UHGV virus genome: UHGV-0008253
From: a virus
Length of the DNA: 42,773 nt
Strand: one strand, 5' to 3'
Within the stretch, counting starts at the first letter, position 1; each line of letters starts with the position of its first letter. The notes below the pieces were generated by a model that ran no database searches, was not told where the DNA came from, and saw only the letters and a program-made list of their open reading frames with translations. Shown in pieces: positions 12,538 to 35,466 of this stretch. Position numbers and translations under genes: made by a program.

Positions 12538-12868
12538 ATCAGCAGCAGAGCGCAAAGCCGCTCAGAGAGCCAGACAAGCTGCATCTGGTGTGCGTAAGCT
12601 GGAAATTGTGCTTGATGCTCAGGAAATTGAAATGCTGGAGCGTAACTGTGCCACGCGTCGCCCCGGGCGTGCGCCTTACGAATTTGGTGAGTATATAGCG
12701 TTACTGATCCGCCAGGATGATGCACGCGTGCACGGGCGTATAAAATCGATCAGCAGAAAACGTTGCGGTAAGTGCGGCGAGAGAGTTCCTGTGAATTCAT
12801 GCCCGTGTGATGGTGACTCGCAATGCTGGGTGACTAAAGGCTGGCATGAAACGAAATTAATAGTGTGA
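12530..12868 (+). CDS. hypothetical zinc-ribbon protein (CGKCG...CPCDGDSQC), last gene before late-operon terminator
   Basis: Cys4 cluster at C-terminus; ATG at 12530; speculative late regulator by position only. Confidence 0.45.
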   Translation: MAKSAAERKAAQRARQAASGVRKLEIVLDAQEIEMLERNCATRRPGRAPYEFGEYIALLIRQDDARVHGRIKSISRKRCGKCGERVPVNSCPCDGDSQCWVTKGWHETKLIV

Positions 12869-12876
12869 CATGTCAC
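12865..12876. repeat. perfect 12-bp palindrome GTGACATGTCAC (copy 1)
   Basis: identical copy at 32693-32704; both overlap a TGA stop codon. Confidence 0.6.
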
Positions 12877-12917
12877 GAGTAGATTATGCATGATGAATTT
12901 GATGGGGTTTGAATACT

Positions 12918-12943
12918 GCCGCCAACTATGGCGGCTTTATTTT
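12918..12943 (+). terminator. rho-independent terminator immediately upstream of terS
   Basis: hairpin gccgcc-aactat-ggcggc followed by tttatttt. Confidence 0.7.
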
Positions 12944-12986
12944 GCATGGTACTATTACCACAACGGTAACTATTACCACGGTGGTT

Positions 12987-13583
12987 ATGATGCCTGCTGA
13001 ACCTAAAGCCTATAAACGCAAATCAACGCAATTTAAGCCACTAACAGCAATGCAGGAGGCTTATTGCCAGTCATACATCAAAACGCCTGAAAACCAGACT
13101 CAGGCAGCGATTAACGCAGGATTCTCCCCAAATACAGCGGCAGTTAAAGCCAGTGTCATGATGCGCGATGAACGCATTCAAAAACGGATTGCCGAGTTGA
13201 TGGAGGAGCGCAACAAACGAATGCGCGTCAGTGCTGATTACGTTCTCATGCGCTTGGTGGAGATCGACCAGATGGACGTGATCGACATCCTCAACGACGA
13301 TGGTAGCCTTAAGCCAATCCGAGAGTGGCCGAAAATCTGGCGCACTACGCTTAGCGGCTTTGATCTGTCATCGACCATCATGAACATGAACGAGGATTCG
13401 ATAGAGACAATCCTCAAAAAAATTAAATGGCCTGACAAGGTGAAGAACCTCGAACTGATTGGTAAGCACGTCGACGTCAACGCATTCAAAGAACGCCTGG
13501 ATGTTAATGTGAATGTGACAATTGCTGATCGCATAGCGGCAGCCAGGAAGAGACTGAAAGAACGTCAGGATGGCAATCAGTGA
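12987..13583 (+). CDS. terminase small subunit
   Basis: position upstream of and overlapping terL; start at ATG 12987 (MMPAEPK) after terminator. Confidence 0.65.
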   Translation: MMPAEPKAYKRKSTQFKPLTAMQEAYCQSYIKTPENQTQAAINAGFSPNTAAVKASVMMRDERIQKRIAELMEERNKRMRVSADYVLMRLVEIDQMDVIDILNDDGSLKPIREWPKIWRTTLSGFDLSSTIMNMNEDSIETILKKIKWPDKVKNLELIGKHVDVNAFKERLDVNVNVTIADRIAAARKRLKERQDGNQ

Positions 13584-15055
13584 CAGATACAGCGTTATCT
13601 CCTGAAGAGCAGTTAATCGAGGATATTGCAGGGTTCACTCACGATCCGCTTGGCTATGCCCTCTATGCGTTCCCGTGGGGGGAAGAGGGTACTGAACTGG
13701 CACATGCCACCGGTCCACGTCAGTGGCAGGCCGATGCGTTCCGAGAGATACGTGATCACCTGCAGAATCCAGAGACGCGATATCAGCCGCTTATGCTGGC
13801 ACGTGCTTCTGGTCACGGTATTGGTAAATCCGCATTTATCTCAATGCTGATCAACTGGGGCATGTCCACTTGCGAGGATTGTAAGGTCGTGGTGACCGCC
13901 AACACCGACAACCAGCTACGAACGAAGACCTGGCCGGAAATTATCAAGTGGTCAAACCTTGCTATCACGAAAGACTGGTTTACCTGTACCGCTACCGCGA
14001 TGTACAGCAATGACCCTGGGCACGACAAGCGGTGGCGAGCTGACGCAATCCCCTGGTCTGAGCACAACACTGAGGCATTCGCCGGACTACACAACGAGCG
14101 TAAACGCATCATCGTGGTATTTGATGAAGCGTCGAACATTGCGGATCTGGTGTGGGAAGTTGCCGAGGGTGCGCTAACGGACGAAGACACTGAGATTATC
14201 TGGGTGGCTTTCGGAAACCCTACACGTAACACCGGGCGTTTCCGTGAATGTTTCCGCAAATACAAACACCGCTGGAAAACTGCGCAGATTGACAGCAGGA
14301 CGGTGGAAGGCACCAACAAACAGCAGTTGCAGAAATGGGTTGATGACTACGGGGAAGATAGCGACTTCGTTAAAATCCGTGTGCGTGGCATATTCCCTGA
14401 TGCATCTGAATTGCAGTTTATCCCTACCGGTCTTACTGACGAGGCAATGAAACGGGTGGTAACCGCTGCGCAGGTGGCACATGCTCCGGTGATAATCGGT
14501 GTTGACCCGGCATATTCAGGCGTTGATGACGCGGTGATATACCTGCGGCAGGGGCTACACAGTAAGGTGCTGTGGACTGGCAACAAGACTACCGACGATC
14601 TGATTATGGCGAAGCGTATCGCTGACTTTGAAGACCAGTATCAGGCTGACGCGGTGTTCATCGACTTCGGTTACGGAACCGGTTTGAAGTCAATCGGTGA
14701 CGGCTGGGGTCGTACATGGCAACTTGTTCCGTTCGGTGGCGCGTCTACTGACCCGCAGATGCTCAACAAGCGTGGGGAGATGTTCAACTCATGCAAGACA
14801 TGGCTGAGGCTGGGCGGCATGCTGGATGACCAGGAAACAGCGGACGACCTGTCGGCGGCAGAGTACAAAGTTCGAGTGGACGGTAAAATCGTTATCGAAC
14901 CGAAGGAAGATATCAAGGAGCGGCTTGGGCGTTCGCCGGGTAAAGGCGATGCGCTACTGCTGACGTTTGCTTTCCCGGTCTCGAAACGCATAAATATACC
15001 AGGACAGCAAAGCCAGCAGGGAAGGGCCATTACAGATTACGATCCCTATGCTTAA
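13580..15055 (+). CDS. terminase large subunit
   Basis: Walker A-like ARASGHGIGKSAF, size 491 aa, followed by portal module. Confidence 0.85.
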   Translation: MTDTALSPEEQLIEDIAGFTHDPLGYALYAFPWGEEGTELAHATGPRQWQADAFREIRDHLQNPETRYQPLMLARASGHGIGKSAFISMLINWGMSTCEDCKVVVTANTDNQLRTKTWPEIIKWSNLAITKDWFTCTATAMYSNDPGHDKRWRADAIPWSEHNTEAFAGLHNERKRIIVVFDEASNIADLVWEVAEGALTDEDTEIIWVAFGNPTRNTGRFRECFRKYKHRWKTAQIDSRTVEGTNKQQLQKWVDDYGEDSDFVKIRVRGIFPDASELQFIPTGLTDEAMKRVVTAAQVAHAPVIIGVDPAYSGVDDAVIYLRQGLHSKVLWTGNKTTDDLIMAKRIADFEDQYQADAVFIDFGYGTGLKSIGDGWGRTWQLVPFGGASTDPQMLNKRGEMFNSCKTWLRLGGMLDDQETADDLSAAEYKVRVDGKIVIEPKEDIKERLGRSPGKGDALLLTFAFPVSKRINIPGQQSQQGRAITDYDPYA

Positions 15056-15098
15056 TCCGCTTGAGGGGATAATGTTGTTGATATCCTCTGATGAGGAT

Positions 15099-15132
15099 AA
15101 AACAAAGCCAGCTCATAGGCTGGCTGTTTGTG
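15099..15132. terminator. bidirectional terminator between convergent terL and minus-strand 123-aa gene
   Basis: hairpin agccagc-tcatag-gctggct flanked by A-run and T-rich tract. Confidence 0.55.
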
Positions 15133-15145
15133 ATATGTCACGGTG

Positions 15146-15517
15146 TTATTGCTCGCTTAACTTCTGCTTCAGCAAGTAACCTTCAAGCATCCAGATTTTG
15201 TTTACAGCATTCTGTCGGGCAATCTTCCGACCAATTTCTGCATCAAAGTTTTCCGGGCTTGCACAGGCGCTCTCTCCGGTGACGGTGAAGCCGTTGCGCA
15301 GCACCAGGACGCAGAACGTCAGCAGAGAAAGTGATTCGTGCGGCTGGTAGTTTACCTCTCCGCCAGTATGTTTCGCTTTTATGGCTACGCCAAAGGCACC
15401 ATCTTCTGCTGTGAAATATGCCTCCTGAGCAATAATGCTCTCGATATGGTCTGGCGTAACGCGCGGCGCGGCTAAACCTTTAGCCTGAATTTCAGATTCA
15501 ATGTCTTTTTCACTCAT
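15146..15517 (-). CDS. hypothetical protein (reverse-strand insert, co-oriented with tRNA-Arg)
   Basis: 123-aa ORF; no family recognised. Confidence 0.5.
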   Translation of the reverse strand: MSEKDIESEIQAKGLAAPRVTPDHIESIIAQEAYFTAEDGAFGVAIKAKHTGGEVNYQPHESLSLLTFCVLVLRNGFTVTGESACASPENFDAEIGRKIARQNAVNKIWMLEGYLLKQKLSEQ

Positions 15518-15720
15518 AGTCTAATCTCACCTTAAAAAAATGCCCTGCGAACCGGGCGAACTGGAAGCAATGAGTTATGCCTTCCGTGGCTGTACTGGTT
15601 TACAGCATGAAGTCATCGCAATGGCGTCCTGCTGTAAAAAGGGCGGTGATAGTCCTTCAAGGGAAACCATCACCGCCAAGCACCTGGAACTTCTGGCATC
15701 ACGGTCCTTAGGCGTGATTC

Positions 15721-15797
15721 TGGCGTGGCATGCAGGATTCGAACCTGCGACCAACCGCTTAGAAGGCGGTTGCTCTGTCCGACTGAGCTAATGCCAC
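15721..15797 (-). tRNA. tRNA-Arg (anticodon UCU)
   Basis: cloverleaf read directly: acceptor GTGGCAT/ATGCCAC, D-stem GCTC/GAGC, anticodon stem ACCGC/GCGGT with loop CUUCUAA, T-arm GCAGG-TTCGAAT-CCTGC, discriminator G, CCA. Confidence 0.85.
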
Positions 15798-16119
15798 AAC
15801 GCTGAGAGCACTTAGCCTGTTAAGGCACCACACTTTGTCGCGGCTCCATAAATGCTCTCATCGTTGTACCCTCGTCTCTTCCGAGGCGTCACACCGAATC
15901 GCCGGGATGGTGAATCCCCGTGCGCGGAATAAAACCGCTCGACTTGCACATTCCGGCTACCTGGTTCGTTTGCCCGAGCAAGGGAGGGTGCCCCTTAAAC
16001 GTATCCAGACCGCTATCGGCGCATGTGCCATACGCCGTACTGCTCAAAATAAAAGCTCACTCCACCTGTTTAATTTAACGACAAGCCAGTCAGGTTAGTA
16101 ACCAGAATGAGCCCTTTGG

Positions 16120-16134
16120 TTACCTGAAAGGTAA
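16120..16134. promoter_or_regulatory. operator palindrome TTACCtgaaaGGTAA upstream of head gene block
   Basis: perfect TTACC-N5-GGTAA. Confidence 0.6.
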
Positions 16135-16224
16135 TAATTAACGCGTTAAATGTCAACCTTCTACGATAAATAAATCATATGTGGTTAAATTGGTAATAAT
16201 TTAATTGCGTACGGAGTCATTGAT

Positions 16225-16431
16225 ATGTGCATGGGTAGCTCACCATCAGTGCCTGCAACACCAGAAGTTCAGGCAGCACCACAGGAGCAGGATGCCGCCG
16301 TTGTTGATGCCCGCGACGAAGAAACACGTCGCCGTCGCGCTGCTGCTGGTCGTAGTTCTACGCTGCTTACCGGTTCTCAGGGCGACACATCAACCGCTAA
16401 TACCAGCGGTAAAACGCTGCTTGGTCAGTAA
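16225..16431 (+). CDS. hypothetical small protein preceding portal
   Basis: ATG with ACGGAG SD, ends 15 nt before portal start. Confidence 0.45.
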   Translation: MCMGSSPSVPATPEVQAAPQEQDAAVVDARDEETRRRRAAAGRSSTLLTGSQGDTSTANTSGKTLLGQ

Positions 16432-16445
16432 CCGGAGTCATTGAA

Positions 16446-18125
16446 ATGGCGGAAACAACTAAAGAGCGATTGAACAAACAGTTCGCACAACTTGAAAGCG
16501 AGCGTCAGTCGTTCGAGCCGCACTGGCGCGAGTTGAGTGATTACATCAACCCGCGTGGTTCCCGCTTTCTGACTTCTGAAGTCAACCGTAACGATCGACG
16601 CAATACACGCATTATTGATTCGACCGGGACTATGGCGGCGCGCACTCTCGCCAGCGGCATGATGTCAGGCATCACAAGCCCTGCGCGTCCGTGGTTTCGC
16701 CTGGCTACGCCAGATCCTGAAATGATGGATTATGGTCCTGTTAAGTTGTGGCTCGAGGCGGTGCAGAACCGCATGAACGATATGTTCAATAAGTCGAATC
16801 TCTACCAGTCTCTTCCGCAGTTATACGGAAGCCTCGGCACATACAGCACTGGTGCAATGGCGGTGCTGGAGGATGACGAGGACATCATTCGCACAATGCC
16901 ATTCCCGATAGGCAGTTACTACCTGGCTAACTCACCTCGTGGCAGTGTGGACACCTGTTTTCGCAAGTTCTCTATGACTGTTCGTCAGCTTGTTCAGGAG
17001 TTCGGGCTAAATAACGTCAGCGAATCCGTAAAAAGCATGTGGGAAAGCGGCACCTACGAGAAGTGGATTGAAGTGATGCATTCGGTTTACCCGAACATTG
17101 ACCGCGATACATCGAAGCTGGATAGCAAGAACAAGCCATTCAAATCGGTTTATTACGAGGTTGGTGGCGATAACGACAAGTTGTTGCGTGAGTCCGGATT
17201 CGATGAGTTTCCAATTATGGCTCCGCGCTGGGAAGTTAACGGCGAAGATGTTTATGGATCATCATGCCCGGGTATGCTGGCGCTTGGACCTGTTAAGGCA
17301 TTGCAGCTTCTCCAGAAGCGCAAGTCGCAGTTGATTGATAAAGCCACCAATCCGCCGATGGTTGCTCCGACTTCCCTCAAGAATCAGCGTGCCTCCCTTC
17401 TTCCTGGCGACATCACGTATATCGATCAGATTACTGGTCAGGATGGTTTCAGGCCTGCTTATCTGGTTAACCCCAGTACAGCAGATTTGGTGGCAGACAT
17501 TCAGGACACTCGTCAAATCATTAACAGCGCCTACTTTGTCGATCTGTTCATGATGTTGCAGAACATCAATACCCGCTCGATGCCTGTTGAAGCGGTGATC
17601 GAAATGAAAGAAGAAAAACTTCTGATGTTGGGGCCGGTTCTGGAGCGTCTGAACGACGAATGTCTTAATCCTCTCATTGACCGCTCTTTCTCGATGATGG
17701 TGCGTAAAAACATGCTGCCGCCACCGCCAGACGTGATGGAAGGTATGCCCCTGAAGGTCGAATACATTTCCGTCATGGCTCAGGCGCAGAAGTCTATCGG
17801 CCTGTCCAGTCTGGCGTCCACGGTTAACTTCATTGGTCAACTTGCGCAAGCGAAACCAGAAGCTCTCGACAAACTCAACGTTGATCAGGCGATCGATGCA
17901 TTCGCTGATATGTCCGGAGTGTCTCCAACCGTCATTGTTCCGCAGGAACAGGTTGAGCAGGCTCGCCAGCAACGGGCACAGCAGCAACAGCAGCAACAAA
18001 TGATGGCGATGGGGATGGCGGCGGCACAGGGTGCCAAGACGCTAAGCGAAGCTAAAACTTCGGATCCGAGTGTTTTGTCAGCTATGGCGAATGCAGTTAG
18101 TGGTCAGGGTGGGCAATCACAATGA
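16446..18125 (+). CDS. portal / head-to-tail connector protein (podovirus type)
   Basis: 559 aa, C-terminal poly-Q and MAMGMAAAQG tail resembling T7 gp8-type connectors; position after terminase. Confidence 0.75.
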   Translation: MAETTKERLNKQFAQLESERQSFEPHWRELSDYINPRGSRFLTSEVNRNDRRNTRIIDSTGTMAARTLASGMMSGITSPARPWFRLATPDPEMMDYGPVKLWLEAVQNRMNDMFNKSNLYQSLPQLYGSLGTYSTGAMAVLEDDEDIIRTMPFPIGSYYLANSPRGSVDTCFRKFSMTVRQLVQEFGLNNVSESVKSMWESGTYEKWIEVMHSVYPNIDRDTSKLDSKNKPFKSVYYEVGGDNDKLLRESGFDEFPIMAPRWEVNGEDVYGSSCPGMLALGPVKALQLLQKRKSQLIDKATNPPMVAPTSLKNQRASLLPGDITYIDQITGQDGFRPAYLVNPSTADLVADIQDTRQIINSAYFVDLFMMLQNINTRSMPVEAVIEMKEEKLLMLGPVLERLNDECLNPLIDRSFSMMVRKNMLPPPPDVMEGMPLKVEYISVMAQAQKSIGLSSLASTVNFIGQLAQAKPEALDKLNVDQAIDAFADMSGVSPTVIVPQEQVEQARQQRAQQQQQQQMMAMGMAAAQGAKTLSEAKTSDPSVLSAMANAVSGQGGQSQ

Positions 18126-18418
18126 CAGATTACGAAGACGATCAACTGAAAGAAGAAAACGCCCGTAAGCAACGTGACATGGCACAGCGTGAAATTGATG
18201 ACATTCGCTTTGTCATGAGCAGTGAACAGGGGCGTCGCGTTGTCTGGTCGGTGCTGGAGAAAGGCCGTGTGTTTTCCGCTATCTCACCGATGGACGCTAT
18301 GGCAATGGCATTTAATGAGGGGCAACGCAATCTGGCGCTGGAACTGTTTCAGCGCGTTATGGCGCATTGTCCTGAACAGTATTTGAAGATGGCCAAAGAG
18401 GCCAGTGAACAGGAGTGA
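18122..18418 (+). CDS. hypothetical protein
   Basis: coupled ORF between portal and scaffold. Confidence 0.5.
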   Translation: MTDYEDDQLKEENARKQRDMAQREIDDIRFVMSSEQGRRVVWSVLEKGRVFSAISPMDAMAMAFNEGQRNLALELFQRVMAHCPEQYLKMAKEASEQE

Positions 18419-18420
18419 TC

Positions 18421-19116
18421 ATGAATTTATTTGAGCGTTTGCTGTATAGCCGTCTTTGCAATGAGCAACCAGTCGATGGTGGAGCAGCTCCGGCTGCGTC
18501 AGAACCGTCAGCGCCTGCAGGTGATAACCCTGCTCCAGTTGGTGATCCATCACAACAGGAAGGTGATAAGCCACAACCTGTTGCTGATGGCGATAAACCT
18601 GCTGATGACAAAAAGCCTGAAAACGATAAGCAGGATGAAAAAAAGGACGGCGATAAACCAGAGGGTGCGCCTGAGAAGTACGAGTTTCAGGCTGCCGAAG
18701 GCGTAGAGCTGGATACAGAAGCGTTGAAGGAATTCGAGCCGGTGGCGCGAGAACTTAACCTGACCAACGAGCAAGCGCAAAAGCTGGTTGATGCTTATCC
18801 GAAGATTCTGGCAGGTGTTCAGCAGCGCCAGGCAGAAGCCTGGCAGAAAACAACCGAGCAGTGGGCTGCTGATGTAAAAGCTGACAAAGAAATCGGTGGC
18901 GACAAGTTGATTTCTAACCTTAGCGCCGCACAGCGTGCGCTTGACCAGTTCGGGACACCTGAGCTCAAAGAATATCTGAACACCACCGGACTGGGTAATC
19001 ACCCTGATCTGGTCAAAACGTTCGTGAAAATCGGAAAGGCGATGTCTGAGGATGGCATGGTCACCGGTGGTAATGAAGGCCAGCGTAGTGCGGCCGAAGT
19101 GCTCTATGGCAAATAA
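18421..19116 (+). CDS. scaffolding protein
   Basis: acidic, Lys/Asp/Pro repeat-rich, immediately upstream of major capsid gene; ATG 18421 after AGGAG. Confidence 0.6.
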   Translation: MNLFERLLYSRLCNEQPVDGGAAPAASEPSAPAGDNPAPVGDPSQQEGDKPQPVADGDKPADDKKPENDKQDEKKDGDKPEGAPEKYEFQAAEGVELDTEALKEFEPVARELNLTNEQAQKLVDAYPKILAGVQQRQAEAWQKTTEQWAADVKADKEIGGDKLISNLSAAQRALDQFGTPELKEYLNTTGLGNHPDLVKTFVKIGKAMSEDGMVTGGNEGQRSAAEVLYGK

Positions 19117-19130
19117 GAGAGGAAATAACA

Positions 19131-20117
19131 ATGGCTGTTAAAGGCTTAACTGCGCTAACGCTGGCTGACTGGGGTAAGCGCGTCGATAAAGATGGGAAAG
19201 TCGATAAGATTATCGAGCTTCTCGGTCAAACTAACCCGATCCTTCAGGATATGCCTTTTGTCGAAGGGAACCTTCCTACCGGACACAAAACCACCATTCG
19301 TTCTGGTTTACCTTCAGCTACCTGGCGTTTGTTGAACTATGGTGTACAACCAAGCAAATCAACCACAGTGCAGGTCACCGATTCCATTGGTATGTTGGAA
19401 ACCTATGCTGAAGTCGATAAGTCACTGGCTGATCTGAACGGCAATACCGCCGAATTCCGCCTGTCTGAAGACCGCGCATTTATTGAAGCGATGAATCAGC
19501 AGATGGCGCAGACGCTGTTTTATGGTGATTCCAGCGTTAACCCTCAGCAGTTTATGGGACTGTCCTCCCGCTATTCCAGCCTGTCTGCGGGTAATGCTCA
19601 GAACATCATTGATGCTGGTGGCACGGGTACAGATAACACCTCAATCTGGTTAGTGGTGTGGGGCGAAAACACCGTGCATGGCATCTTCCCGAAAGGGCAG
19701 AAGGCTGGCATCCAGATGGAAGATAAAGGCCAGGTGACACTGGAAGATGCTAATGGCGGCAAGTACGAAGGCTATCGTACCCATTACAAATGGGATAACG
19801 GACTTTCTCTGCGTGACTGGCGTTATGTTGTTCGCATTGCAAACATCGATGTCAGCAATCTTTCAGAACCTTCCTCTGCCGCAAATATTGCGAAGTTGAT
19901 GGTTAAAGCACTGCATCGCATTCCAAATCGTGGCATGGGTCGCCCGGTGTTCTACATGAACCGCACTGTAGGCCAGGCTCTTGATCTGCAATCTCTGGAG
20001 AAAACATCTCTGGCGATCAGCGTAAAAGAGACAGAAGGCGAGTGGTGGACTTCATTCCGTGGTGTACCAATCCGTGAAACTGATGCGCTTCTGGAAACAG
20101 AAGCCCGCGTGGTGTAA
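19131..20117 (+). CDS. major capsid protein
   Basis: 328 aa, strong SD, position after scaffold, followed by stable hairpin. Confidence 0.7.
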   Translation: MAVKGLTALTLADWGKRVDKDGKVDKIIELLGQTNPILQDMPFVEGNLPTGHKTTIRSGLPSATWRLLNYGVQPSKSTTVQVTDSIGMLETYAEVDKSLADLNGNTAEFRLSEDRAFIEAMNQQMAQTLFYGDSSVNPQQFMGLSSRYSSLSAGNAQNIIDAGGTGTDNTSIWLVVWGENTVHGIFPKGQKAGIQMEDKGQVTLEDANGGKYEGYRTHYKWDNGLSLRDWRYVVRIANIDVSNLSEPSSAANIAKLMVKALHRIPNRGMGRPVFYMNRTVGQALDLQSLEKTSLAISVKETEGEWWTSFRGVPIRETDALLETEARVV

Positions 20118-20133
20118 CGCCTGTTATTAACCT

Positions 20134-20153
20134 GTGGGTCGTAACAGACCCAC
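20134..20153 (+). promoter_or_regulatory. stable hairpin after capsid gene (gtgggtc-gtaaca-gacccac), possible attenuator/RNA stability element
   Basis: 7-bp GC-rich stem read directly; no U-tract so not a classic terminator. Confidence 0.4.
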
Positions 20154-20168
20154 TAATGGAGAAAGAAG

Positions 20169-20606
20169 ATGATCACCGACAAACTGTTGATGTTCTCCGA
20201 AGCTCAGGCGGTTACGAATACCGCGGCTTCTACTGACGTAATCGATCTCGGTCCAATTGATGGAAACCGTCGCGATATCGGTGTGGGTTACCCGCTTGAG
20301 TTTTGGGTGCTGGTTAACGAAGCCGCCACGGCAAGTGGTGAGGCAACTGTAAACATCCAGTTGCAGACGAGTGAGAATAACAGCTCTTGGGCCACTATTT
20401 ATGATAGTGGTGCGTTGGCAAAGGCCACCCTGACAGCAGGTAAGCGAGTTGTTTCTGCAAAGGTGCCTGCCGGTGTTCAGCGATATCTGCGTGTTAACTA
20501 CTCCGTCGCAACTGGCCCACTAACGGCTGGCGAATTCACTGCTGGTATCAGTCTTGATGTTGATGCCAATACGCCGTATCCGATCCGCTCAAAAGTAACT
20601 GGTTAA
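20169..20606 (+). CDS. hypothetical virion protein
   Basis: ORF in structural block. Confidence 0.45.
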   Translation: MITDKLLMFSEAQAVTNTAASTDVIDLGPIDGNRRDIGVGYPLEFWVLVNEAATASGEATVNIQLQTSENNSSWATIYDSGALAKATLTAGKRVVSAKVPAGVQRYLRVNYSVATGPLTAGEFTAGISLDVDANTPYPIRSKVTG

Positions 20607-20607
20607 G

Positions 20608-20952: not shown

Positions 20953-20968
20953 GCCTCGCGGATCAGAC

Positions 20969-20990
20969 AAGGGGCTTCGGCCCCTTTATT
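20969..20990 (+). terminator. hairpin with UUCG tetraloop and short U-tract
   Basis: ggggc-ttcg-gcccc followed by tttatt. Confidence 0.45.
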
Positions 20991-21002
20991 GCAGGAGTGT
21001 AT

Positions 21003-24402: not shown

Positions 24403-24866
24403 TGATCGATGTTCAAATTATTCCCGCAACCGAAGAGCATCTTCAGATGATTTTGCCGGATGTTCGTCAGGCTGATATTGACGAACTGTATGCGGTATCA
24501 CTGATGACTACCGAAGATGCGCTGCGTGTTGGTCTGCGTACTGCGACTATGGCCTGGTCAGGGTTCGCGAACGGAGAACTGGTAACCATGTTTGGCGTAT
24601 CTCCGGCGTCAATGATCGGTGGCAATGGTACGCCCTGGCTGGTCGGGACCAGCCGTATTGAAAAATATCAGAAGACATTTCTGCGCCACTGCCGCCCTGT
24701 ATTGCAGCAGATGCTGGCAGTTTATCCGCGCCTGGAAAACTACGTCGACGAGCGAAACCATGTTGCCAAAGCATGGCTGCACTGGCTTGGATTCAGGCTT
24801 GAAGAAGCCGCGCCTTATGGTGCTCTTGGTCTTAATTTCCACAGATTTCACATGGAGAGAAAATAA
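24402..24866 (+). CDS. hypothetical virion protein
   Basis: coupled ORF. Confidence 0.4.
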   Translation: MIDVQIIPATEEHLQMILPDVRQADIDELYAVSLMTTEDALRVGLRTATMAWSGFANGELVTMFGVSPASMIGGNGTPWLVGTSRIEKYQKTFLRHCRPVLQQMLAVYPRLENYVDERNHVAKAWLHWLGFRLEEAAPYGALGLNFHRFHMERK

Positions 24867-25411
24867 TGTGCGATCCGGTTATTGCTGGTGGCGCAATGCT
24901 CGCCATGAGTGGCATTCAGGCATACACCCAGTACCAACAGGGAAAGTATGCCTCGAAGGTTGCAGAAGCGAACGCAGATATAGCCACAGCTCAGGCAAAT
25001 GATGCAATAAACAGAGGTAACGCTGAAGCTGAGCAACGGCGCAGAGAGACCCGACAGCGGCTTGGTACACAGGCGGCGACAATGGGGGCTACCGGCGCTG
25101 ATTTATCTACAGGTAACGCGCTGGATATATTTGGCGACACTGCCCAGTTTGGCGCTCTTGATTCTCTGACGACGGTGAATAACGCGCAACGCGAGGCTTA
25201 CGGTTATCAGGTTCAGGCTGCCAACTATAAAGCAGAAGCCAGTTCAGCCCGTAAACAGGGGAATGTGGGAGCAGCAACAACATTGCTCACTGCGCCTCTG
25301 AAGGCATACGGTGCGTACCAGATGTTTGGTGGGACGTGGAGTCCGTTTACTCAAAGCACCCCTGCGCCAATCGGGGCAGCAGCAGGAACCAGATTACCCG
25401 GAGGATTATAA
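24866..25411 (+). CDS. internal virion protein candidate (Ala/Gln-rich)
   Basis: position before two large core-like proteins. Confidence 0.4.
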   Translation: MCDPVIAGGAMLAMSGIQAYTQYQQGKYASKVAEANADIATAQANDAINRGNAEAEQRRRETRQRLGTQAATMGATGADLSTGNALDIFGDTAQFGALDSLTTVNNAQREAYGYQVQAANYKAEASSARKQGNVGAATTLLTAPLKAYGAYQMFGGTWSPFTQSTPAPIGAAAGTRLPGGL

Positions 25412-27924
25412 TGCCAGTCGTACCAACAGTATCCGGCCGTCAGGTTCAGAGCCGTGGAGTTCAGTCAGCAGGCTTGCAGACGTTTTCTCAGCCAGGTATT
25501 GGTGATGCTTTTGTTCGGGCAGGGACAGAGGCAATTGATGTTTTGGGGCAGGCAAAACAGCGTGCCAATATCGCTCTGGCTCAGGAGGCATCTCTTAACC
25601 TCAGTCAGATAAGCAGTGATCTGCTGAATAATCCTGAAACAGGATTGCTTAACCTGAAAGGGAAAAATGCTATTGGAAAAGGTCAGGAGTATACGCAGCA
25701 GTTTGATGCTCAGGTCGAACAACTGGCTATGTCGCTGCCGGATGAACAGGCTCGTAATGCTTTCATGCAGCAGGCGCAGCAGCAGCGCATTCAGTTCACT
25801 ACGCAGGCCGGGCGGCACGAGATAGGGCAAATAAATGCCTACGAAGAAGGCCAGTTTCAGGCTACGCTGCTGAACAATGGTAAAAATGCCGCAGCATTGT
25901 ATGGCGACAACGCCGCATACGTATTGGCTAATAAGCAAACTTTCCAGCAAATTGAGGATTACGGCATTGCACATGGCTGGAGTGACGAGCAAATCCAGGC
26001 CAAGAAAATCGAGTTTAAAGAGAAGGTTGCTGATGCTGCATTGTCCCAGTGGTCGGCAAACAATGCGACCGCATTCATCCAAAGTAATGGCGAGTTAAGT
26101 GATACTGCTGCTGGAGCTCGCCGTGCTGTAGCAGATAGTGACTCTTCCGAGCGTGCCCGTGGCATACGCAACAATAACCCAGGAAATCTCGAATACAGCA
26201 AAACTAATCCGTGGGTAGGCCAGACCGGTGATGATGGTCGATTTGCTAAATTCGAAACACCTGAACACGGGATTCGTGCATTAGGGCGGAACCTGATGTC
26301 GTATCAGAGGCAGGGTATTGATACCGTCAGCGAGATAATTAATCGCTGGGCACCGCCTACTGATAAAAATGACACTATGTCGTATATCAAAGCAGTGTGC
26401 GAACAACTTGGCGTTTCTGCTGATGAGCCTCTCGATGCATCTAATCCTGATACCCTGAAGGCGCTTTGTGCAGCCATTATCCATCATGAGAACGGTAGCC
26501 AGCCATACAGTGATCAGCAGTTAACTGCTGGTGTCAGTGCAGCACTTGGTTTATCAACAATTCCAACCAACACCAAACGCTATACCGGTAATGCAGCATT
26601 CGATGCGGCATCTCCTGAGGCGCAGGCAAGTTTTATGCGACAGGCGGATCAACTGCGTCGGCAGCAGCAGGCTGAATATAAAACGATGATTGACAGCCAG
26701 GTTCGCGATGCGACAGCTGCGTATATGCGTGGCGTTGAATTTCCTAACCCACCTGGTGAGGCTGATTTTATTGCAGCTTATGGAGTAAGAGAAGGAAACC
26801 TGCGATATACCGAGTTCAGAAATACGCAAATCGCCGGACAGTATATAGGCTCTTTCCGCAATATGCCGACAAGCAGCATTACAGCATATGTTGAGCAATT
26901 ACGCCCGGATACTGGTGAGACAGGGGAGGGTTATGCGGCACGAGCCGCTCTTTATGACAACGTTGTGTCGGCTGCAAGTCAGGTGATAAAGCAGCGACAG
27001 GCTGATCCTGTACAGTTCTCTCTTGCCGCCGGACAGGCAAAGCCTATCGACATGAGCAATAAGGATAACTTTGGACAGAGCGTTGCCTTGCGTGCTGCTC
27101 AGGTCAGTGACCTTGCTAAGTCATATGGCACTCCACTGACGTTCTTTTCCAAAGACGAGGCCAATCAGATCGGTGTTTTCTTTCGTGATGCGCCCGTTTC
27201 CCAACAGGCAGCATATCTCGATACCATCAGGCAGAGCACTGGTGGTGGGCAGGTGTATATGTCAGCACTACAGCAGATCAGTGCCAACGCTCCATCTGCT
27301 GCCGTTGCCGGGATACTGATGGATAAGCCAGGTGGTATTTTGGCAGAAAAAAACTGGTTTAATCCGGATGTTTCCGTGTCTCCAGAAACCGCTGCGCAGA
27401 CAATTCTTGCTGGCGCGGCGGCTCGTAAAGGTACTGATGACGCGAAAGGTATTCCGATGCCTAAAGATGCTGATCTTCGCCTTGAGTTTTCTGACATGGT
27501 GAAGAATGCATTTGCTGGTGATGCTCAGGGGGCATCAATGGCATACGAGATCGCAAAGGACTATTACGCTGGTGTGATGGCGAAAAAAGGCGTGGTATCA
27601 GGCGAAATTGACAATGATATCTGGAAACAGGCTGTTAACGTAGCTACAGGTGGCGTGCATGACTATAACGGAATGGGGAATGTTCTTTTGCCGTGGGGAA
27701 TGTCTGCAGAGCAATTCGATAAGCAGGTTAATCAGGCTTGGAATGAACAAGTTGTTGGCACAGGGATAAAAACACCGCCTGGTCAGTATGGTTTGCAAAG
27801 TTACGGCGATAGTCAGTACCTGGTGAAACTTGGTACTGGTTATCTGCTAAAAGATGATGGTTCTCCCGTTGTTCTTGATCTGACACAGAAGCGTCAGAGA
27901 TTCTCCGGAGATATTCCGCAATGA
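25411..27924 (+). CDS. large internal virion/ejection protein
   Basis: 837 aa from ATG 25411 (GGAGG SD, TAATG coupling); assignment by size and position. Confidence 0.5.
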   Translation: MPVVPTVSGRQVQSRGVQSAGLQTFSQPGIGDAFVRAGTEAIDVLGQAKQRANIALAQEASLNLSQISSDLLNNPETGLLNLKGKNAIGKGQEYTQQFDAQVEQLAMSLPDEQARNAFMQQAQQQRIQFTTQAGRHEIGQINAYEEGQFQATLLNNGKNAAALYGDNAAYVLANKQTFQQIEDYGIAHGWSDEQIQAKKIEFKEKVADAALSQWSANNATAFIQSNGELSDTAAGARRAVADSDSSERARGIRNNNPGNLEYSKTNPWVGQTGDDGRFAKFETPEHGIRALGRNLMSYQRQGIDTVSEIINRWAPPTDKNDTMSYIKAVCEQLGVSADEPLDASNPDTLKALCAAIIHHENGSQPYSDQQLTAGVSAALGLSTIPTNTKRYTGNAAFDAASPEAQASFMRQADQLRRQQQAEYKTMIDSQVRDATAAYMRGVEFPNPPGEADFIAAYGVREGNLRYTEFRNTQIAGQYIGSFRNMPTSSITAYVEQLRPDTGETGEGYAARAALYDNVVSAASQVIKQRQADPVQFSLAAGQAKPIDMSNKDNFGQSVALRAAQVSDLAKSYGTPLTFFSKDEANQIGVFFRDAPVSQQAAYLDTIRQSTGGGQVYMSALQQISANAPSAAVAGILMDKPGGILAEKNWFNPDVSVSPETAAQTILAGAAARKGTDDAKGIPMPKDADLRLEFSDMVKNAFAGDAQGASMAYEIAKDYYAGVMAKKGVVSGEIDNDIWKQAVNVATGGVHDYNGMGNVLLPWGMSAEQFDKQVNQAWNEQVVGTGIKTPPGQYGLQSYGDSQYLVKLGTGYLLKDDGSPVVLDLTQKRQRFSGDIPQ

Positions 27925-29723
27925 GTTACTTTGGCCTTAATCCAGTAAACCAGAATCAGCAGCTTGACGAAGCAGCATCAAATCCAGTTGGCTTTAACAG
28001 CGATGTTGGTTTTTTCGACAATGCTGTAGGAGCGGCATTGTCTGGTTTGTACTCCGGGCTGGTGGCAAAGCCAGATCAGTTGCTATGGGCAGGGATGGAT
28101 AAAATCGTATCCCCGATTGCTCAGCTTGTTAACGAAAACACCTCGCTCAATGACACTTCAGTTTCATACATTGCTGAGCAGAGAAAACTAGCAGAGCAGC
28201 AGGTTAAGCGGCTGACGCCTGATGCCGCGACAACCGGAACCGCCGGGCAGGTCCTTTATGGGTTGTTCGATATGGGCGGGCAGGCTGTTGTCGGTACAAC
28301 GCTCGGTGGTCCGGTCGGAGGTGCTGCGGCGGTAACTTCTCTACAGGGTTTTTCTGAGTTTGAACGGTTGACAGCACAGGGTGTTGATTTCAGGACGGCG
28401 CAGGAAGCGGGATTAGTGCAGGGTATTACTGCTGGTGCCGGAACACTGATCCCTATGAGCCTCGGGTTACGTGCTGGTGGTGCGCTGGCGGAAGGTGTGG
28501 CGGCTCAGCTTGCGCGGACGGGTGAAAGTTCAGTGCGACGCGCCGCAGCAACAGCAATACGTGCAACGCCAGATATTGCCTATGCCGCAGGTACAAATAT
28601 TGCGTTCGGTATGGCACAGCGTGGGCTTACTGCAAAAACGCTTCGTGATGGTGGCTATAGCGAAATGGCTAACCAGTATGATGTGTTGGATCGACAGGCA
28701 ATTGCTATTGATGCTGTTCTTGGGGTGGCGTTTGGTGGTGTCGGCAGATTTATTAACTCTCGCGGCGAGTCTACAAGCGCACCAAATTTTTCACCAGTTG
28801 ATATTGATGCTGCACTGGCGGCGAATGCCGCTCATCATGCTGAAATTGATATTGCTCCCGGCGTTCCGATCAACGTGCTTTCGCGTAATTCGCACATTCA
28901 GGCTCTGCGAAAAGCCATGTCTGATGTTAGCCAGGGGAGACCTGTAGACGTTGCCAGCATTGTTGAGTCTGCATCTTTCAGTGAAATTCCTGGGCGCAAG
29001 AGTCTGCTGTCTCAGGCAGTTAATGAGGCTCTGTCATCTGTAGATGATGGAGTAACGGCGCGCGCTATAGAAAATCGGTTGCTTGAAGAACAGGCCGCGC
29101 AGCTTTTGTCGCGTGGCGATAGAAAGGTTTACCAGTCTGAAATCGCTAATAGCCAACGAATTATTGAAAATCTCACTGAACAGCGCGCACAAATTCTTGC
29201 AGAAGAGCCAACCGGTAGCGGTAAGGCTTTATCTCGTGCTCGATCAGATAAACAGGCCAGACTTCGCGATATTGACCAACGAATCCGGCAGGCACAAGAA
29301 CGCCTGGAATTTTCTCGTAACGCGTTGGCGCCGCACGAGCCTGGAGGTCAGTTTTTTGAAGCTCGAGCAGAACTGGCACGACGACAGCAGGCAGAAAGTG
29401 AACTTAATGCTCAGGCTGTTTCATTCTATAAAACAGCAGAGGTCAGGACGCCAGAAGAAGTAGCTCCTTTTGAGCCCGGTAAGATATTGCAACAGACAGA
29501 ACAAAAAATGATGGCAGATCCGGCAGGAGATATTGATCTGCGCATAGCTGAAGACTCGCTGCTTGAATCACCTGACATGATAATCACCGTGCTGGATGAT
29601 GATGGTAATCCACAATCGCGCAGTGCGCGTGAAGCACTGGATGAAGCGAACAGGGAAAGTGAGCAGGCAATACAGGATTCCAGCCTGTTTGATGTCGCTG
29701 TGGCGTGTTTCTTGAGAGGTTAA
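27921..29723 (+). CDS. internal virion/ejection protein
   Basis: 600 aa, coupled. Confidence 0.5.
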   Translation: MSYFGLNPVNQNQQLDEAASNPVGFNSDVGFFDNAVGAALSGLYSGLVAKPDQLLWAGMDKIVSPIAQLVNENTSLNDTSVSYIAEQRKLAEQQVKRLTPDAATTGTAGQVLYGLFDMGGQAVVGTTLGGPVGGAAAVTSLQGFSEFERLTAQGVDFRTAQEAGLVQGITAGAGTLIPMSLGLRAGGALAEGVAAQLARTGESSVRRAAATAIRATPDIAYAAGTNIAFGMAQRGLTAKTLRDGGYSEMANQYDVLDRQAIAIDAVLGVAFGGVGRFINSRGESTSAPNFSPVDIDAALAANAAHHAEIDIAPGVPINVLSRNSHIQALRKAMSDVSQGRPVDVASIVESASFSEIPGRKSLLSQAVNEALSSVDDGVTARAIENRLLEEQAAQLLSRGDRKVYQSEIANSQRIIENLTEQRAQILAEEPTGSGKALSRARSDKQARLRDIDQRIRQAQERLEFSRNALAPHEPGGQFFEARAELARRQQAESELNAQAVSFYKTAEVRTPEEVAPFEPGKILQQTEQKMMADPAGDIDLRIAEDSLLESPDMIITVLDDDGNPQSRSAREALDEANRESEQAIQDSSLFDVAVACFLRG

Positions 29724-29728
29724 ATTAA

Positions 29729-32203
29729 ATGAGACAGGAATGTATACAAGCGGTTCAGCAGGCGGCGCAGCGCATGTTAACGGCGCGAGAAATACAGAAC
29801 ATTGAAGACCGCATTTATCGAAATATGCGCTCCATTGCTCGTGATGACCCTATGTCGTGGCGACAACTTTCCGAATCAGAGCGGCTATATCGAGCAGCAC
29901 AATTGGCATCTGAAGAATTACAGCGAGAAGCGGCATTAAAGAAACGTCGTGTGGCCCTCACTATAGCCGCACGTCAGAGATTGGATAAATTTATCAATAG
30001 CTATCAAGGGGCTGATGGGAAACTTGGCGCTCTTAACCGTACTATTGCTTTTAATGCAGACGGTAAATCGAATTTCCTCTCTGTTGAATCCAGAACAAAA
30101 GCCACTCGTGATTATGCATTGAGTCAATTGCAGGAGGCATTTGAAGCAGTTGATCCTCGCTTTTTTGGCCTGTTTGAAGATGAAGCTGGCGTGCGTGACC
30201 TGGTATATGAAATGCGAGGGCAAAATACTGGCAATGCTAAAGCAAGAAAAGGTGCTAAGGCGTGGAGAGAAGTGACAGAGCTACTGCGCCGCCGGTTTAA
30301 TGATGCTGGTGGGGACATTGGCTATCTCGAAAACTGGGGGCTCCCTCAACATCATTCTATGGAAAAGGTTGGGGCGGTATCAAAGGATAAGTGGGTTAGC
30401 GATGTTATAGGTAAGCTGGATCGCAAATATTATACCCGAGTCGATGGACAACTGATGAACGATGCCGAGTTGTCTGCATTTCTTGGAGAGGCTTATAACA
30501 CGATCGCTACTGGTGGGCTGAATAAGCTTACTGATACCGGAATGCGAATTTCCGGCGCACGTGCTAACCGGGGTAATGCATCACGACAGATACATTTCAA
30601 AGATGCAGATTCCTATCTGCAATATCAGCAACTTTATGGCGATCGCTCTCTATGGGAAATCATGGTCGGTCACCTGGAAGGTATCAGTAAAGATATTGCA
30701 CTGGTGGAAACATATGGCCCAAACCCCGATCATGTTTTCCGCTCTCTTCTTGATCAGGTGAAGGCAGAAACGGCAACAGCTAACCCGAGTAAAACCGGTA
30801 AAGTCGAGCGGCTGGCGAACAACACAGAGAATCTGTACAACTTTATTTCCGGAAAGACACAGCCTGTAGCGAATCCGCACATCGCGCGATGGTCTGACAA
30901 TATCCGCAACTGGCTGGTTGCCAGCAGACTCGGATCCGCGTTGCTGTCATCGTTCTCTGATCTTGGAACCATGTATCTGTCTGCGAAGGTTACCAACCTT
31001 CCAATGAACCAGTTATTCCGCAACCAGCTTGAAGCTATGGACCCAACGAACCGTACAGAACTTGCGCGGGCGCGCCGCGCTGGTCTGGCGATGGAATCTC
31101 TACTTGGCAGCGTTAACCGCTGGGCGATGGATAATATGGGGCCGTCTGTGTCTCGTTGGGCTGCAACGGTGGTAATGCGTGCCAGTGGGCTTACAGCATG
31201 GTCAGATGCGCACAAGCGCGCCTATGGCGTAACCATGATGGGAAGCCTGGGAGAAGTAGTGTCACGGACACCAGACCTTCGTAGCCTCGATGATTCTGAT
31301 TTTCGTATCCTGAAAAGCAAAGGGATTACTGACACAGACTGGAGCGTATGGAAGCTGGCGCAACAGGAGGACTGGGGGAACGGTAATAATACGATGCTGA
31401 CACCGGAAAGCATTATGCGTATCCCTGATTCAGCAGTTAAACATCTTGGTGAGCCTGAACGCGTGAAATTTGAGGCAATGCGTAAACTGCTCGGTGCCGT
31501 AACTGAAGAAGTTGATATGGCTGTTATTACACCGGGTGCACGTGAGCAACTGATAACCGGTTCTGGTATTCAGCGTGGAACATGGAAAGGTGAATTAACG
31601 AGAAGTGTTTTCCTGTTTAAATCGTTCCCTATCTCGGTGGTTATGCGTCACTGGTCACGCGCTATGGGTATGCCGTCGGCTGGTGGGCGTGCGGCATATA
31701 TTGCGACGTTTATTGCCAGTACGACCATTCTTGGCGCTTTGTCGCAGCAACTTAACGACCTTGCGTCTGGTCGTAATCCTCGCGAGATGACAGGAGAAGA
31801 TGCTGCTAAATTTTGGCTTGGTGCTCTACTGAAAGGTGGTGGTCTTGGCCTTTACGGTGACTTTTTATTGTCAGATCACACTAGGTACGGAAGCGGCGCG
31901 CTGGCGTCGATGCTTGGCCCGGTAGCTGGTCTGGTTGATGACGTAGTGAAGATTGCTCAGGGCATACCGTTAAATGCTGTGGAAGGGAAGAATGAGCAGA
32001 CTGGTGGTGATCTGGTTAAGCTGGGGAAAGGTCTGATGCCAGGTGCGAATCTCTGGTACTTAAAGGCGGCTCTCGATCACATGATCTTTAACCAGATGCA
32101 GGAGTATTTTTCACCAGGTTATTTGCGTAAAATGGAGCAACGTTCGAAGAAAGAGTTTAACCAGACATACTGGTGGCGACCACAGGATGTCACTCCGCAA
32201 TAA
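29729..32203 (+). CDS. large internal virion/ejection protein
   Basis: 824 aa, last gene before accessory island. Confidence 0.5.
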   Translation: MRQECIQAVQQAAQRMLTAREIQNIEDRIYRNMRSIARDDPMSWRQLSESERLYRAAQLASEELQREAALKKRRVALTIAARQRLDKFINSYQGADGKLGALNRTIAFNADGKSNFLSVESRTKATRDYALSQLQEAFEAVDPRFFGLFEDEAGVRDLVYEMRGQNTGNAKARKGAKAWREVTELLRRRFNDAGGDIGYLENWGLPQHHSMEKVGAVSKDKWVSDVIGKLDRKYYTRVDGQLMNDAELSAFLGEAYNTIATGGLNKLTDTGMRISGARANRGNASRQIHFKDADSYLQYQQLYGDRSLWEIMVGHLEGISKDIALVETYGPNPDHVFRSLLDQVKAETATANPSKTGKVERLANNTENLYNFISGKTQPVANPHIARWSDNIRNWLVASRLGSALLSSFSDLGTMYLSAKVTNLPMNQLFRNQLEAMDPTNRTELARARRAGLAMESLLGSVNRWAMDNMGPSVSRWAATVVMRASGLTAWSDAHKRAYGVTMMGSLGEVVSRTPDLRSLDDSDFRILKSKGITDTDWSVWKLAQQEDWGNGNNTMLTPESIMRIPDSAVKHLGEPERVKFEAMRKLLGAVTEEVDMAVITPGAREQLITGSGIQRGTWKGELTRSVFLFKSFPISVVMRHWSRAMGMPSAGGRAAYIATFIASTTILGALSQQLNDLASGRNPREMTGEDAAKFWLGALLKGGGLGLYGDFLLSDHTRYGSGALASMLGPVAGLVDDVVKIAQGIPLNAVEGKNEQTGGDLVKLGKGLMPGANLWYLKAALDHMIFNQMQEYFSPGYLRKMEQRSKKEFNQTYWWRPQDVTPQ

Positions 32204-32212
32204 GGAAGTGTT

Positions 32213-32386
32213 GTGTTTTTAATTATTTTGAGTGTGATAATTTCTGGTGGATTGTTATTTATTGACCGCTACAAATATTTTCTTAACCCTCAGACTCAAG
32301 CTATTTGCTGGTTCATCTTTGTTGTGCAGGGAGTAGTTCTTGTTGCAAGCCTTATTGAGGGGAGGCCTCTTATTTTTACTGGGTAA
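32213..32386 (+). CDS. possible 57-aa hydrophobic protein (GTG start)
   Basis: AAGGAAG SD 4 nt before GTG; two hydrophobic stretches; below ORF-track cutoff. Confidence 0.3.
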   Translation: MFLIILSVIISGGLLFIDRYKYFLNPQTQAICWFIFVVQGVVLVASLIEGRPLIFTG

Positions 32387-32399
32387 ATTAGGTGACTAC

Positions 32400-32696
32400 A
32401 TGCAAGCTATAGGATTCATTGTTTATATCGTCGTTGGTCTTTTTCAGTTGGCAGCAATTATGGCTGGGCTTGAATCATGGTGGGGATTGCACTGGATAAT
32501 TGCAGCCCCCATTGCTTTCATCGTGAGCTATATTCCATTTGTTGGAGCGATTGTTGGTATGGTTGGCGCTGTGGATGTATGGCGGTGGGAGTGGTGGCAG
32601 GCTGGCCTTCTCTTCTTTGGTGGGATCATCTTTGCTATTGTCTGCGGTGGAATGTCATCATTTTTCGAATGGCTATCATTCAGAAAAGGGACGTGA
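32400..32696 (+). CDS. small membrane protein (3 predicted TM helices)
   Basis: MQAIGFIVYIVVGLFQLAAIMAGL... hydrophobic throughout; own terminator downstream. Confidence 0.55.
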   Translation: MQAIGFIVYIVVGLFQLAAIMAGLESWWGLHWIIAAPIAFIVSYIPFVGAIVGMVGAVDVWRWEWWQAGLLFFGGIIFAIVCGGMSSFFEWLSFRKGT

Positions 32697-32704
32697 CATG
32701 TCAC
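32693..32704. repeat. perfect 12-bp palindrome GTGACATGTCAC (copy 2)
   Basis: identical to 12865-12876; overlaps TGA stop and directly abuts terminator hairpin. Confidence 0.6.
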
Positions 32705-35390: not shown

Positions 35391-35409
35391 CTTATCTTCT
35401 CCATGCAAT

Positions 35410-35429: not shown

Positions 35430-35466
35430 GCAAATAATTTGTTTGCTATCCAGCACGTTTTGCAAA

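Follow-up and report, generated by a model that had tools for sequence, protein, structure and literature searches.

The virus genome UHGV-0008253 (42,773 nucleotides, one strand; this whole stretch is the window below) is a prophage of the epsilon15/phiV10 type, genus Uetakevirus, in which a 12-bp palindrome, GTGACATGTCAC, recurs at the ends of transcription units. The terminase region of the window is 95–98% identical to those of phiV10 and E. coli relatives and ~82% identical to that of epsilon15. The early-right operon ends at the first copy of the palindrome (site a), which is followed by a terminator, two copies of a repressor-operator motif, and the start of terS at 12990; terL and a small minus-strand gene (15146..15517) are convergent, with site b between them; and the long structural operon closes with site c. 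Based on comparisons with other temperate phages, we argue that the palindrome is probably the recognition site of a small protein whose gene ends inside site a.

Palindrome copies in the window and in Uetakevirus relatives

The initial annotation described two identical copies of the palindrome, at 12865-12876 and 32693-32704, each holding a TGA stop codon, and the sequence confirms both points. Specifically, the stop codon of the open reading frame (ORF) 12527..12868 lies at 12866-12868, inside the palindrome of site a, and that of ORF 32340..32696 lies at 32694-32696, inside that of site c. These are exactly the copies found without mismatch. A mismatch-tolerant search of the window recovered a third copy with one mismatch, GTGATATGTCAC, at 15130-15141 (site b), which had been overlooked, as had the associated gene discussed below. 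Site b is 4 bp past the terL terminator hairpin (15106-15125) and 4 bp short of the stop codon of 15146..15517, and it is homologous to perfect copies in phiV10, epsilon15, SPN1S, and Tyrion. The terminators that had been placed 42 and 1 bp downstream of the two perfect copies are both present, with the first spacing corrected to 41 nt (hairpin from 12918). The phiV10 record annotates the counterpart of the hairpin at 32706..32729 as a terminator.

A chance expectation of 0.005 had been attached to the repeat, which is true for a 12-mer chosen beforehand; the fair test, in which any perfect 12-bp palindrome may be the repeated one, found such a repeat in 32 of 1,500 dinucleotide-preserving shuffles of the window (p ~0.02). 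The window contains 11 perfect 12-bp palindromes, matching expectation, and GTGACATGTCAC is the only one that is repeated. Taken alone, the repeat within the window is suggestive, not decisive.

We therefore rely on comparisons with eight complete genomes of relatives (phiV10, epsilon15, TL-2011b, SPN1S, Tyrion, BUCT554, BUCT711, and PAT1), whose hosts are Escherichia, Salmonella, Enterobacter, and Klebsiella. The palindrome is found in 8/8 relatives at position a (0–1 mismatch), in 8/8 at position c, and in 6/8 at position b (0–1 mismatch), where no copy was found in TL-2011b, in which the neighbouring gene module is replaced, or in BUCT711. Loss of the palindrome from close relatives, which had been proposed as a check, was thus not seen, with all eight keeping it at both of the junctions originally noted. 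Perfect copies at position b occur in phiV10 (2262), epsilon15 (2142), SPN1S (2174), and Tyrion (2702), and in six prophage loci. The flanks of the palindrome are diverged or unrelated among the relatives, and even the neighbouring genes differ; nucleotide identity between the phages is ~75–80%, yet all 12 bases are kept at the three positions. BLAST homology between phages frequently starts or ends exactly at the palindrome, and these alignments show it as a conserved island at module boundaries.

The overlap with a stop codon is common, but it is not required, because in phiV10, SPN1S, Tyrion, and TL-2011b, where the gene upstream of position c varies, the palindrome trails a different stop codon by 2–38 bp. 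Site c lies 0–3 nt 5' of a hairpin in 7/8 Uetakeviruses, with the hairpin of BUCT711 on the opposite side and ~9 bp off. Site b lies 3–4 nt from its hairpin, on the 5' side for the minus-strand transcript, which has the better T-run.

The records of epsilon15 and phiV10 have no feature annotated at the palindrome positions, though epsilon15 holds many annotated binding sites, and the annotations of SPN1S/SPC32H, N15, phiKO2, and ZF40 likewise have none at these positions. We considered whether the annotated 'repressor' sites of epsilon15 are the palindrome and rejected this, as they follow a different motif, ATTACC-N5-GGTAAT.

Several further differences were seen around positions a and b. In HEMP4, PAS61, and phiv142-3, homology to the window stops directly past the palindrome of site b, and the adjoining gene (the counterpart of 15146..15517) appears, from these alignments, to have been swapped with the palindrome retained. 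Some Uetakeviruses carry an extra small gene (~110 amino acids) inserted between the gene that ends in site a and terS. A LexA box (CTGT-N8-ACAG) follows the palindrome ~30–60 bp past the stop codon of the gp49-like gene in loci L009, L010, L016, L017, L025, and L026, and also in BUCT554 (~8190-8260).

A gene associated with the palindrome across phages

The gene that ends in site a encodes a 112-amino-acid protein of the epsilon15 gp49 / N15 gp46 family, currently labelled 'hypothetical' or 'transcriptional regulator' in hundreds of enterobacterial and Vibrio prophages. Its predicted model shows a ribbon-helix-helix (RHH) fold as the core, preceded by a basic, arginine-rich N-terminal helix and followed by a Cys-rich C-terminal part. 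Searches of Pfam, NCBIfam, and PDB sequences assigned the protein to no significant family, RHH families included, and it did not match the Pfam Q families. Profile comparison with E. coli MatP (hhalign) was not significant. P22 NinX, which is of equal length and whose name is used by one record for a neighbouring gene, was tried as a relative and proved unrelated.

To evaluate the link between gene and site, we gathered 71 prophage loci by the protein alone (one genome per species, 40–85% identity, 562 kb) from hosts that include Citrobacter, Xenorhabdus, Proteus, Providencia, Pantoea, and Yersinia. The motif GTGAC-NN-GTCAC was found within ~4 kb of the gene in 59/71 loci. The 562 kb held 68 such sites, whereas 59 control palindromes of matched composition averaged 0.5 sites each (maximum 5), which corresponds to a ~130-fold enrichment. 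The TGA of the motif is the stop codon of the gene in 29/71 loci, and in 14 more the motif lies within 40 bp of the stop codon.

Apart from this gene, the genomic contexts have almost nothing in common; they comprise Uetakevirus, P2-like, lambdoid, and N15-like genomes, ZF40, and a Vibrio siphovirus. The gene and its site lie ahead of terS in Uetakeviruses, and past the replication gene A in P2-like prophages, where they are convergent with the portal and terminase genes. In lambdoid prophages the site is 0.8 kb upstream, either intergenic or inside a cII/YdaT-like gene, in its 3' part. The three copies of ZF40 are all perfect: one belongs to the early-left operon, a second falls within the cII-like gene, and the third follows the homologue by 3 bp. 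N15 and phiKO2 have three copies each at the same three positions. Three copies are also present in Vibrio phage K308, whose protein is 31% identical. P2 and P22, both of which lack the gene, do not have the motif; this is weak evidence, with ~0.04 copies expected per genome by chance.

The reverse test, in which the IMG/VR viral collection was scanned for the 14-mer TGTGACATGTCACG, drew on partial contigs and 120 listed stretches. Among the matches listed, 46/120 encode the protein, with the motif 0–10 bp from the 3' end of the gene in 42/46, and a further 25 of the 120 are homologous to known secondary contexts.

About 100 distinct sites were collected with the pattern GTGAC-NN-GTCAC, and the half-sites are therefore fixed by the search. 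Beyond the searched pattern, the left flank is a pyrimidine and the right flank a purine, which extends the working consensus to YGTGAC-NN-GTCACR (14 bp). The centre is mostly AT and depends on lineage: AT in the window and ZF40, TG/CA in N15 and phiKO2 (at all of their copies), and the symmetric GC in P2-like Yersinia phages. C10>T and C12>T were the single-base variants observed.

These results bear on the possibility that the palindrome is a chance repeat or a functionless 'linker' at mosaic junctions. The window-only repeat (p ~0.02) and the homology that often starts or stops exactly at the palindrome would fit such an origin, but it accounts neither for 12 bases kept at three positions amid ~75–80% identity and unrelated flanks nor for the enrichment around the partner gene in many genera. 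In addition, 12 bp is too short for homologous exchange, and a passive linker need not remain palindromic. We regard this origin as close to negligible.

The association, the predicted fold, and the geometry of the site together suggest, as the best-supported reading, that the RHH protein of 12530-12868 binds the YGTGAC-NN-GTCACR palindrome as its recognition site, with a probability that we estimate at roughly 0.6. A short two-fold symmetric DNA site is conserved together with the gene, both among the loci gathered by the protein (59/71) and in the reverse test (46/120 matches listed). The two-stranded beta-ribbon of a dimer would enter the major groove at the centre of the palindrome, with the invariant GTGAC half-sites covered by the conserved basic N-terminal helices. 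Gene and site form a mobile module, which has spread among several kinds of temperate phage of Enterobacterales, Vibrio, and Aeromonas. The site is usually fused to the 3' end of the gene and therefore co-inherited when phages exchange modules, with more copies, typically three per genome, scattered along the phage transcription units.

Nonetheless, several observations weigh against binding by this protein. The link between gene and site is, as drawn from sequences, one of guilt by association. No site was found within 4 kb in 12/71 loci, and 49/120 matches listed in the reverse test show neither the gene nor a known context (these are partial contigs and not scorable as counter-examples). 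K308 mixes the centres GC, AC, and AC within one genome. Finally, in a Providencia subgroup the beta-strand reads TPQWQVE as opposed to RKLELVLD and the site is still AT-centred; the centre is thus not set in any simple way by the beta-ribbon.

It is also conceivable that a host protein of Enterobacterales and Vibrionales (MatP, SlmA-like, or other) binds the palindrome, with the phage gene merely linked to it. The 12 bases are conserved over phages of many host genera, as would be expected with a conserved host factor, the motif resembles matS, and the module has a host range similar to that of MatP. The half-sites are identical to those of matS, the MatP site of the E. coli Ter macrodomain (13 bp, GTGAC-RNY-GTCAC; GTGACRNYGTCAC), but the palindrome has 12 bp with a 2-bp centre and is one base shorter. 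At none of the sites is the 13-bp form present. Both forms are missing from P2 and P22, and K308 matches the 13-bp form once, away from its sites. The palindrome copies lie in phage genomes, unlike matS in the chromosome terminus, and the phage protein lacks the four-helix bundle and coiled coil of MatP, with the Cys-rich tail in their place. The SlmA-binding site, GTGAGTACTCAC, shares with the palindrome only the outer GTGA/TCAC, and the inner four bases differ. The CRP site is TGTGA-N6-TCACA; its half-sites are spaced 6 bp apart, whereas the GTGA/TCAC blocks of the palindrome are 4 bp apart. Moreover, the centre tracks the lineage of the phage protein and not the host, as N15 (TG) and phiV10 (AT) both infect E. 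coli, and in genomes of very different kinds the site is joined directly to the phage gene. Binding by a host protein is thus improbable in our estimate.

Among the listed stretches of the reverse test, those lacking the gene were checked as possible P2-like sequences and this was rejected; one of them comes from a lambdoid early region and carries a Q gene. Four viral contigs have the palindrome across the opening codons of a gene starting MRDMSQVLERW (ATG CGT GAC ATG TCA, encoding M-R-D-M-S), which looks like a lambdoid Q antiterminator. The R-D-M-S coding solution recurs inside cII/YdaT-like genes of eight loci in Xenorhabdus and Providencia prophages. Other contigs carry arrays of GTGACA/TGTCAC half-sites, direct and inverted, around the palindrome (L106 ~10780-10870, L154 ~1900-1960, L192 ~10820-10900, L125 ~740-800, and L135 ~3130-3185); no gp49-like gene was found in the stretches examined, and the arrays may belong to a related system, as its compound binding sites or its iterons.

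Further features of the window

The coordinates of the features are collected in Table 1. The candidate fourth copy is identical in phiV10 and TL-2011b and lies inside a conserved coding region, so that coding constraint may be the cause of its conservation. Near-copies were also seen where the lysis operon ends, overlapping the TGA stop codon of Rz, in SPN1S (26722, GTGACATGTCAT, 11/12) and epsilon15 (26618, GTGACATGGCAT, 10/12); the window has no equivalent at 40800-40810, and this position was dropped as a fourth site.

Table 1 Palindrome copies, neighbouring terminators, and other motifs located in the window.
Feature	Position	Strand	Remarks
Site a	12864..12877	none	TGTGACATGTCACG; 12-bp palindrome with Y/R flanks; overlaps the TGA stop of the RHH-protein gene
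Site b	15129..15142	none	TGTGATATGTCACG; one mismatch; between convergent terL and 15146..15517
Site c	32692..32705	none	CGTGACATGTCACA; end of structural-gene operon; overlaps the TGA of ORF 32340..32696
Candidate fourth copy, within a gene	18173..18186	none	CGTGACATGGCACA; one mismatch in a half-site; uncertain status
112-amino-acid protein gene (epsilon15 gp49 / N15 gp46 family, PHROG 536)	12530..12868	+	Proposed palindrome binder
Intrinsic terminator hairpin, end of early-right operon	12918..12935	+	41 nt past site a; followed by TTTATTTT
Terminator hairpin	15106..15125	none	Between convergent terL and 15146..15517; T-run better on minus strand
Intrinsic terminator, end of structural operon	32706..32729	+	GGCCGC-TTTC-GCGGCC plus TTGTTTTT; 1 nt past site c
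ATTACC-N5-GGTAAT copies	5627-5643, 5689-5705, 6401-6417, 8732-8748, 8794-8810, 12954-12970, 12972-12988, 16119-16135, 34083-34099, 35466-35482		

The true start of terS is likely the ATG at 12990 and not the TTG at 12909, because the former is used in the TL-2011b and epsilon15 records; with this start, the terminator and the repressor operators would fall between site a and terS. The longest terS ORF (TTG 12909, as in the phiV10 annotation) would take in the terminator and both operator copies (12909-12989).

The window holds 10 copies of ATTACC-N5-GGTAAT, the repressor-site motif of epsilon15, when up to one mismatch is allowed (0.08 expected). There are copies immediately ahead of terS, the portal operon, and the tailspike gene, and their positions suggest that the prophage repressor directly controls the late units, as a second and separate regulon. 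At 35410-35429, a strong LexA-box-like sequence, AACTGTATATTTATACAGTA, stands beside a repressor-operator copy, with the minus-strand gene 35133..35513 on one side and the tailspike gene on the other. The gene marked by it is probably SOS-controlled and of antirepressor type, such as has reportedly been found in SPC32H. On the minus strand, 15146-15517 and 15575-15754 carry a gene of the N4 gp49 / Sf6 gp66 family (PF13876) with its own terminators, which is moron-like and situated between terL and the portal operon.

Possible modes of action and comparison with known systems

With regard to the placement of the sites, a terminator-like hairpin lies within 50 bp of 47/93 sites, compared with 56/600 random positions (9%), and within 10 bp of 31/93 sites, compared with 23/600. 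In some loci the terminator starts 0–7 bp past the site. The earlier suggestion of a termination-linked element is borne out to this extent, although the coupling is not universal. Where a nearby terminator does not overlap the site (37 sites), the palindrome is on its 5' side in 32 and on its 3' side in 5. Sites b and c and the site of P2-like prophages are at convergent gene junctions. None of the mapped sites was found in a divergent promoter region; they are placed at operon ends, by terminators, or inside early genes. Likewise, they do not overlap promoters as operators do, being located at the 3' ends of genes, at terminators, or inside cII-like, repA, and Q genes. One weak promoter-like match starts in site a (GTGACA-18-CATGAT, 9/12 positions); shuffles give more matches of this kind than the region contains.

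The position 5' of terminators could also suggest that the element is read as RNA, with the transcribed palindrome forming a small hairpin that is recognised by a protein or affects 3'-end stability. The C10>T and C12>T variants would still allow G-U pairs, and the arginine-rich N-terminal helix could bind RNA. However, the RNA form of the 12-mer is a 4-bp hairpin of -1.2 kcal/mol, not better than shuffles, and the ~100 distinct sites show no compensatory changes in the stem, while the would-be loop positions are conserved. The palindrome is not part of the terminators either: at sites b and c it folds as a separate, weak hairpin of 4–5 bp outside the stem, and at site a it weakly pairs with downstream sequence, again outside the terminator stem. 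The N15 sites occur in both orientations relative to transcription, and the predicted fold is that of double-stranded-DNA binders. We therefore see an RNA element as highly improbable.

Returning to binding of DNA by the RHH protein, each of the three copies in the window prophage closes one unit (early-right operon, terminase unit, or structural operon) and stands beside an intrinsic terminator, and in lambdoid, ZF40-like, and N15-like phages the copies lie within the early-left and early-right operons. The protein probably acts on elongating RNA polymerase, because no mapped site is in a promoter region and the early-right operon has the gene of the protein at its end. In the version that we prefer, the bound protein may be an orientation-independent roadblock, although we offer this speculatively and consider it clearly less probable than the binding itself. 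Such a roadblock would reinforce termination and insulation at operon boundaries in the window prophage, and in lambdoid, ZF40-like, and N15-like phages would turn down the early operons after build-up of the protein, which is made last in the early-right operon. Two points count against the roadblock: it leaves unexplained why one would be needed directly before an already good terminator (site c), and antitermination suits the three terminators of the rightward path about equally well.

In the latter case the bound protein would modify the passing RNA polymerase, as Q does at qut, so that it reads through the terminators beside the sites and a single late transcript spans the early-right, terminase, and structural units. 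Going rightward from the early operon to where the structural genes end, the three terminators encountered are those at sites a, b, and c. In addition, the gene is the last before terS, which is the position of Q in lambdoid phages, and the Cys-rich C-terminal part could conceivably contact polymerase. Against this, the protein is not of the Q family, and ZF40 and N15 carry it in addition to their own Q. In P2-like prophages, polymerase reading through would enter the convergent portal and terminase genes in antisense; at site b, rightward transcription meets the hairpin before the palindrome; and many sites are inside early genes with no terminator near. We consider antitermination unlikely.

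Alternatively, the protein might be architectural, bridging the approximately three sites and looping or marking the DNA for packaging, a switch in replication mode, or compaction, in the manner of MatP/matS or of RHH centromere-binding proteins. However, we found no evidence of oligomerisation past the dimer, the positions of the sites relative to packaging genes are not conserved between phage types, and partition is not needed by integrated prophages. The proposal in the initial annotation of a packaging element likewise found no specific support, and we judge an architectural role to be quite unlikely.

The palindrome had also been put forward as the site of a dimeric late regulator. A dimeric regulator finds support in the comparative data, but 'late' is not supported, as the gene co-occurs with other late activators. 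The protein and palindrome are not a general late activator, because ZF40, N15, and phiKO2 own a Q and P2-like phages have their own Ogr-type late control; in phages with their own late activators, sites are found within early operons. More broadly, and with greater doubt than we attach to the roadblock, one may envisage a widespread phage timing device in which a protein with RHH and Cys-rich parts, produced last in the early operon, sits on matS-like 12-bp palindromes within early operons and right next to terminators and, independently of orientation, stops elongating polymerase or licenses it for read-through. If true, this would be a control layer apart from the N, Q, Ogr, and repressor circuits, even in epsilon15, N15, and ZF40.

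Full-text literature searches on the 12-mer and its variants, the epsilon15/phiV10 palindrome, and N15 gene 46 returned nothing relevant, and the palindrome and its pairing with the gene seem not to have been described before. If the pairing is true, it would represent a new regulon that is absent from the annotations of well-studied temperate phages, and would give a lead on function for a family known by uninformative labels. With one 112-amino-acid protein and one 14-bp site, it would also be a simple test system that bears on how adjacent transcription units are insulated or connected. The matS-identical half-sites raise the question of cross-talk between phage and host RHH proteins. In the engineering of reporter phages based on phiV10 or epsilon15, care should be taken not to break the three sites inadvertently, as they mark boundaries between modules.

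Systems that pair an RHH protein with a palindromic site are already known. As in the RHH repressor/operator pairs (P22 Arc, Mnt, CopG, omega, and ParG), we find a small and presumably dimeric protein of predicted RHH fold, a short two-fold symmetric site of 12–14 bp that would fit one dimer, and adjacency of gene and site. Omega-type proteins use half-sites in direct and inverted order, and the half-site arrays in some viral contigs resemble this use. Unlike these pairs, the sites here are not in promoters, approximately three dispersed single sites take the place of one compound operator, and the protein carries a Cys-rich C-terminal part in addition and does not significantly match any RHH family in sequence. 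The arrangement of lambda Q, qut, and tR' is similar in that the gene is the last of the early-right operon and a DNA site and an intrinsic terminator lie shortly ahead of the late genes. It differs in that our protein falls outside the Q family, real Q genes stand alongside the module in ZF40, N15, and phiKO2, and the distance from site to terminator is 0 to ~50 bp, with no space for a promoter in some loci. Operators inside transcription units can repress by roadblock, as do CcpA at intragenic cre sites and LacI. The palindromes resemble these in lying downstream of promoters, within operons or at their ends, where they could affect only elongating polymerase, but the tight coupling to terminator hairpins (0–4 bp at sites b and c) is not known from those systems. 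What differs here from a usual operator is the placement at 3' ends, terminators, and coding regions, together with the Cys-rich part, the approximately three dispersed copies, and half-sites identical to those of matS.

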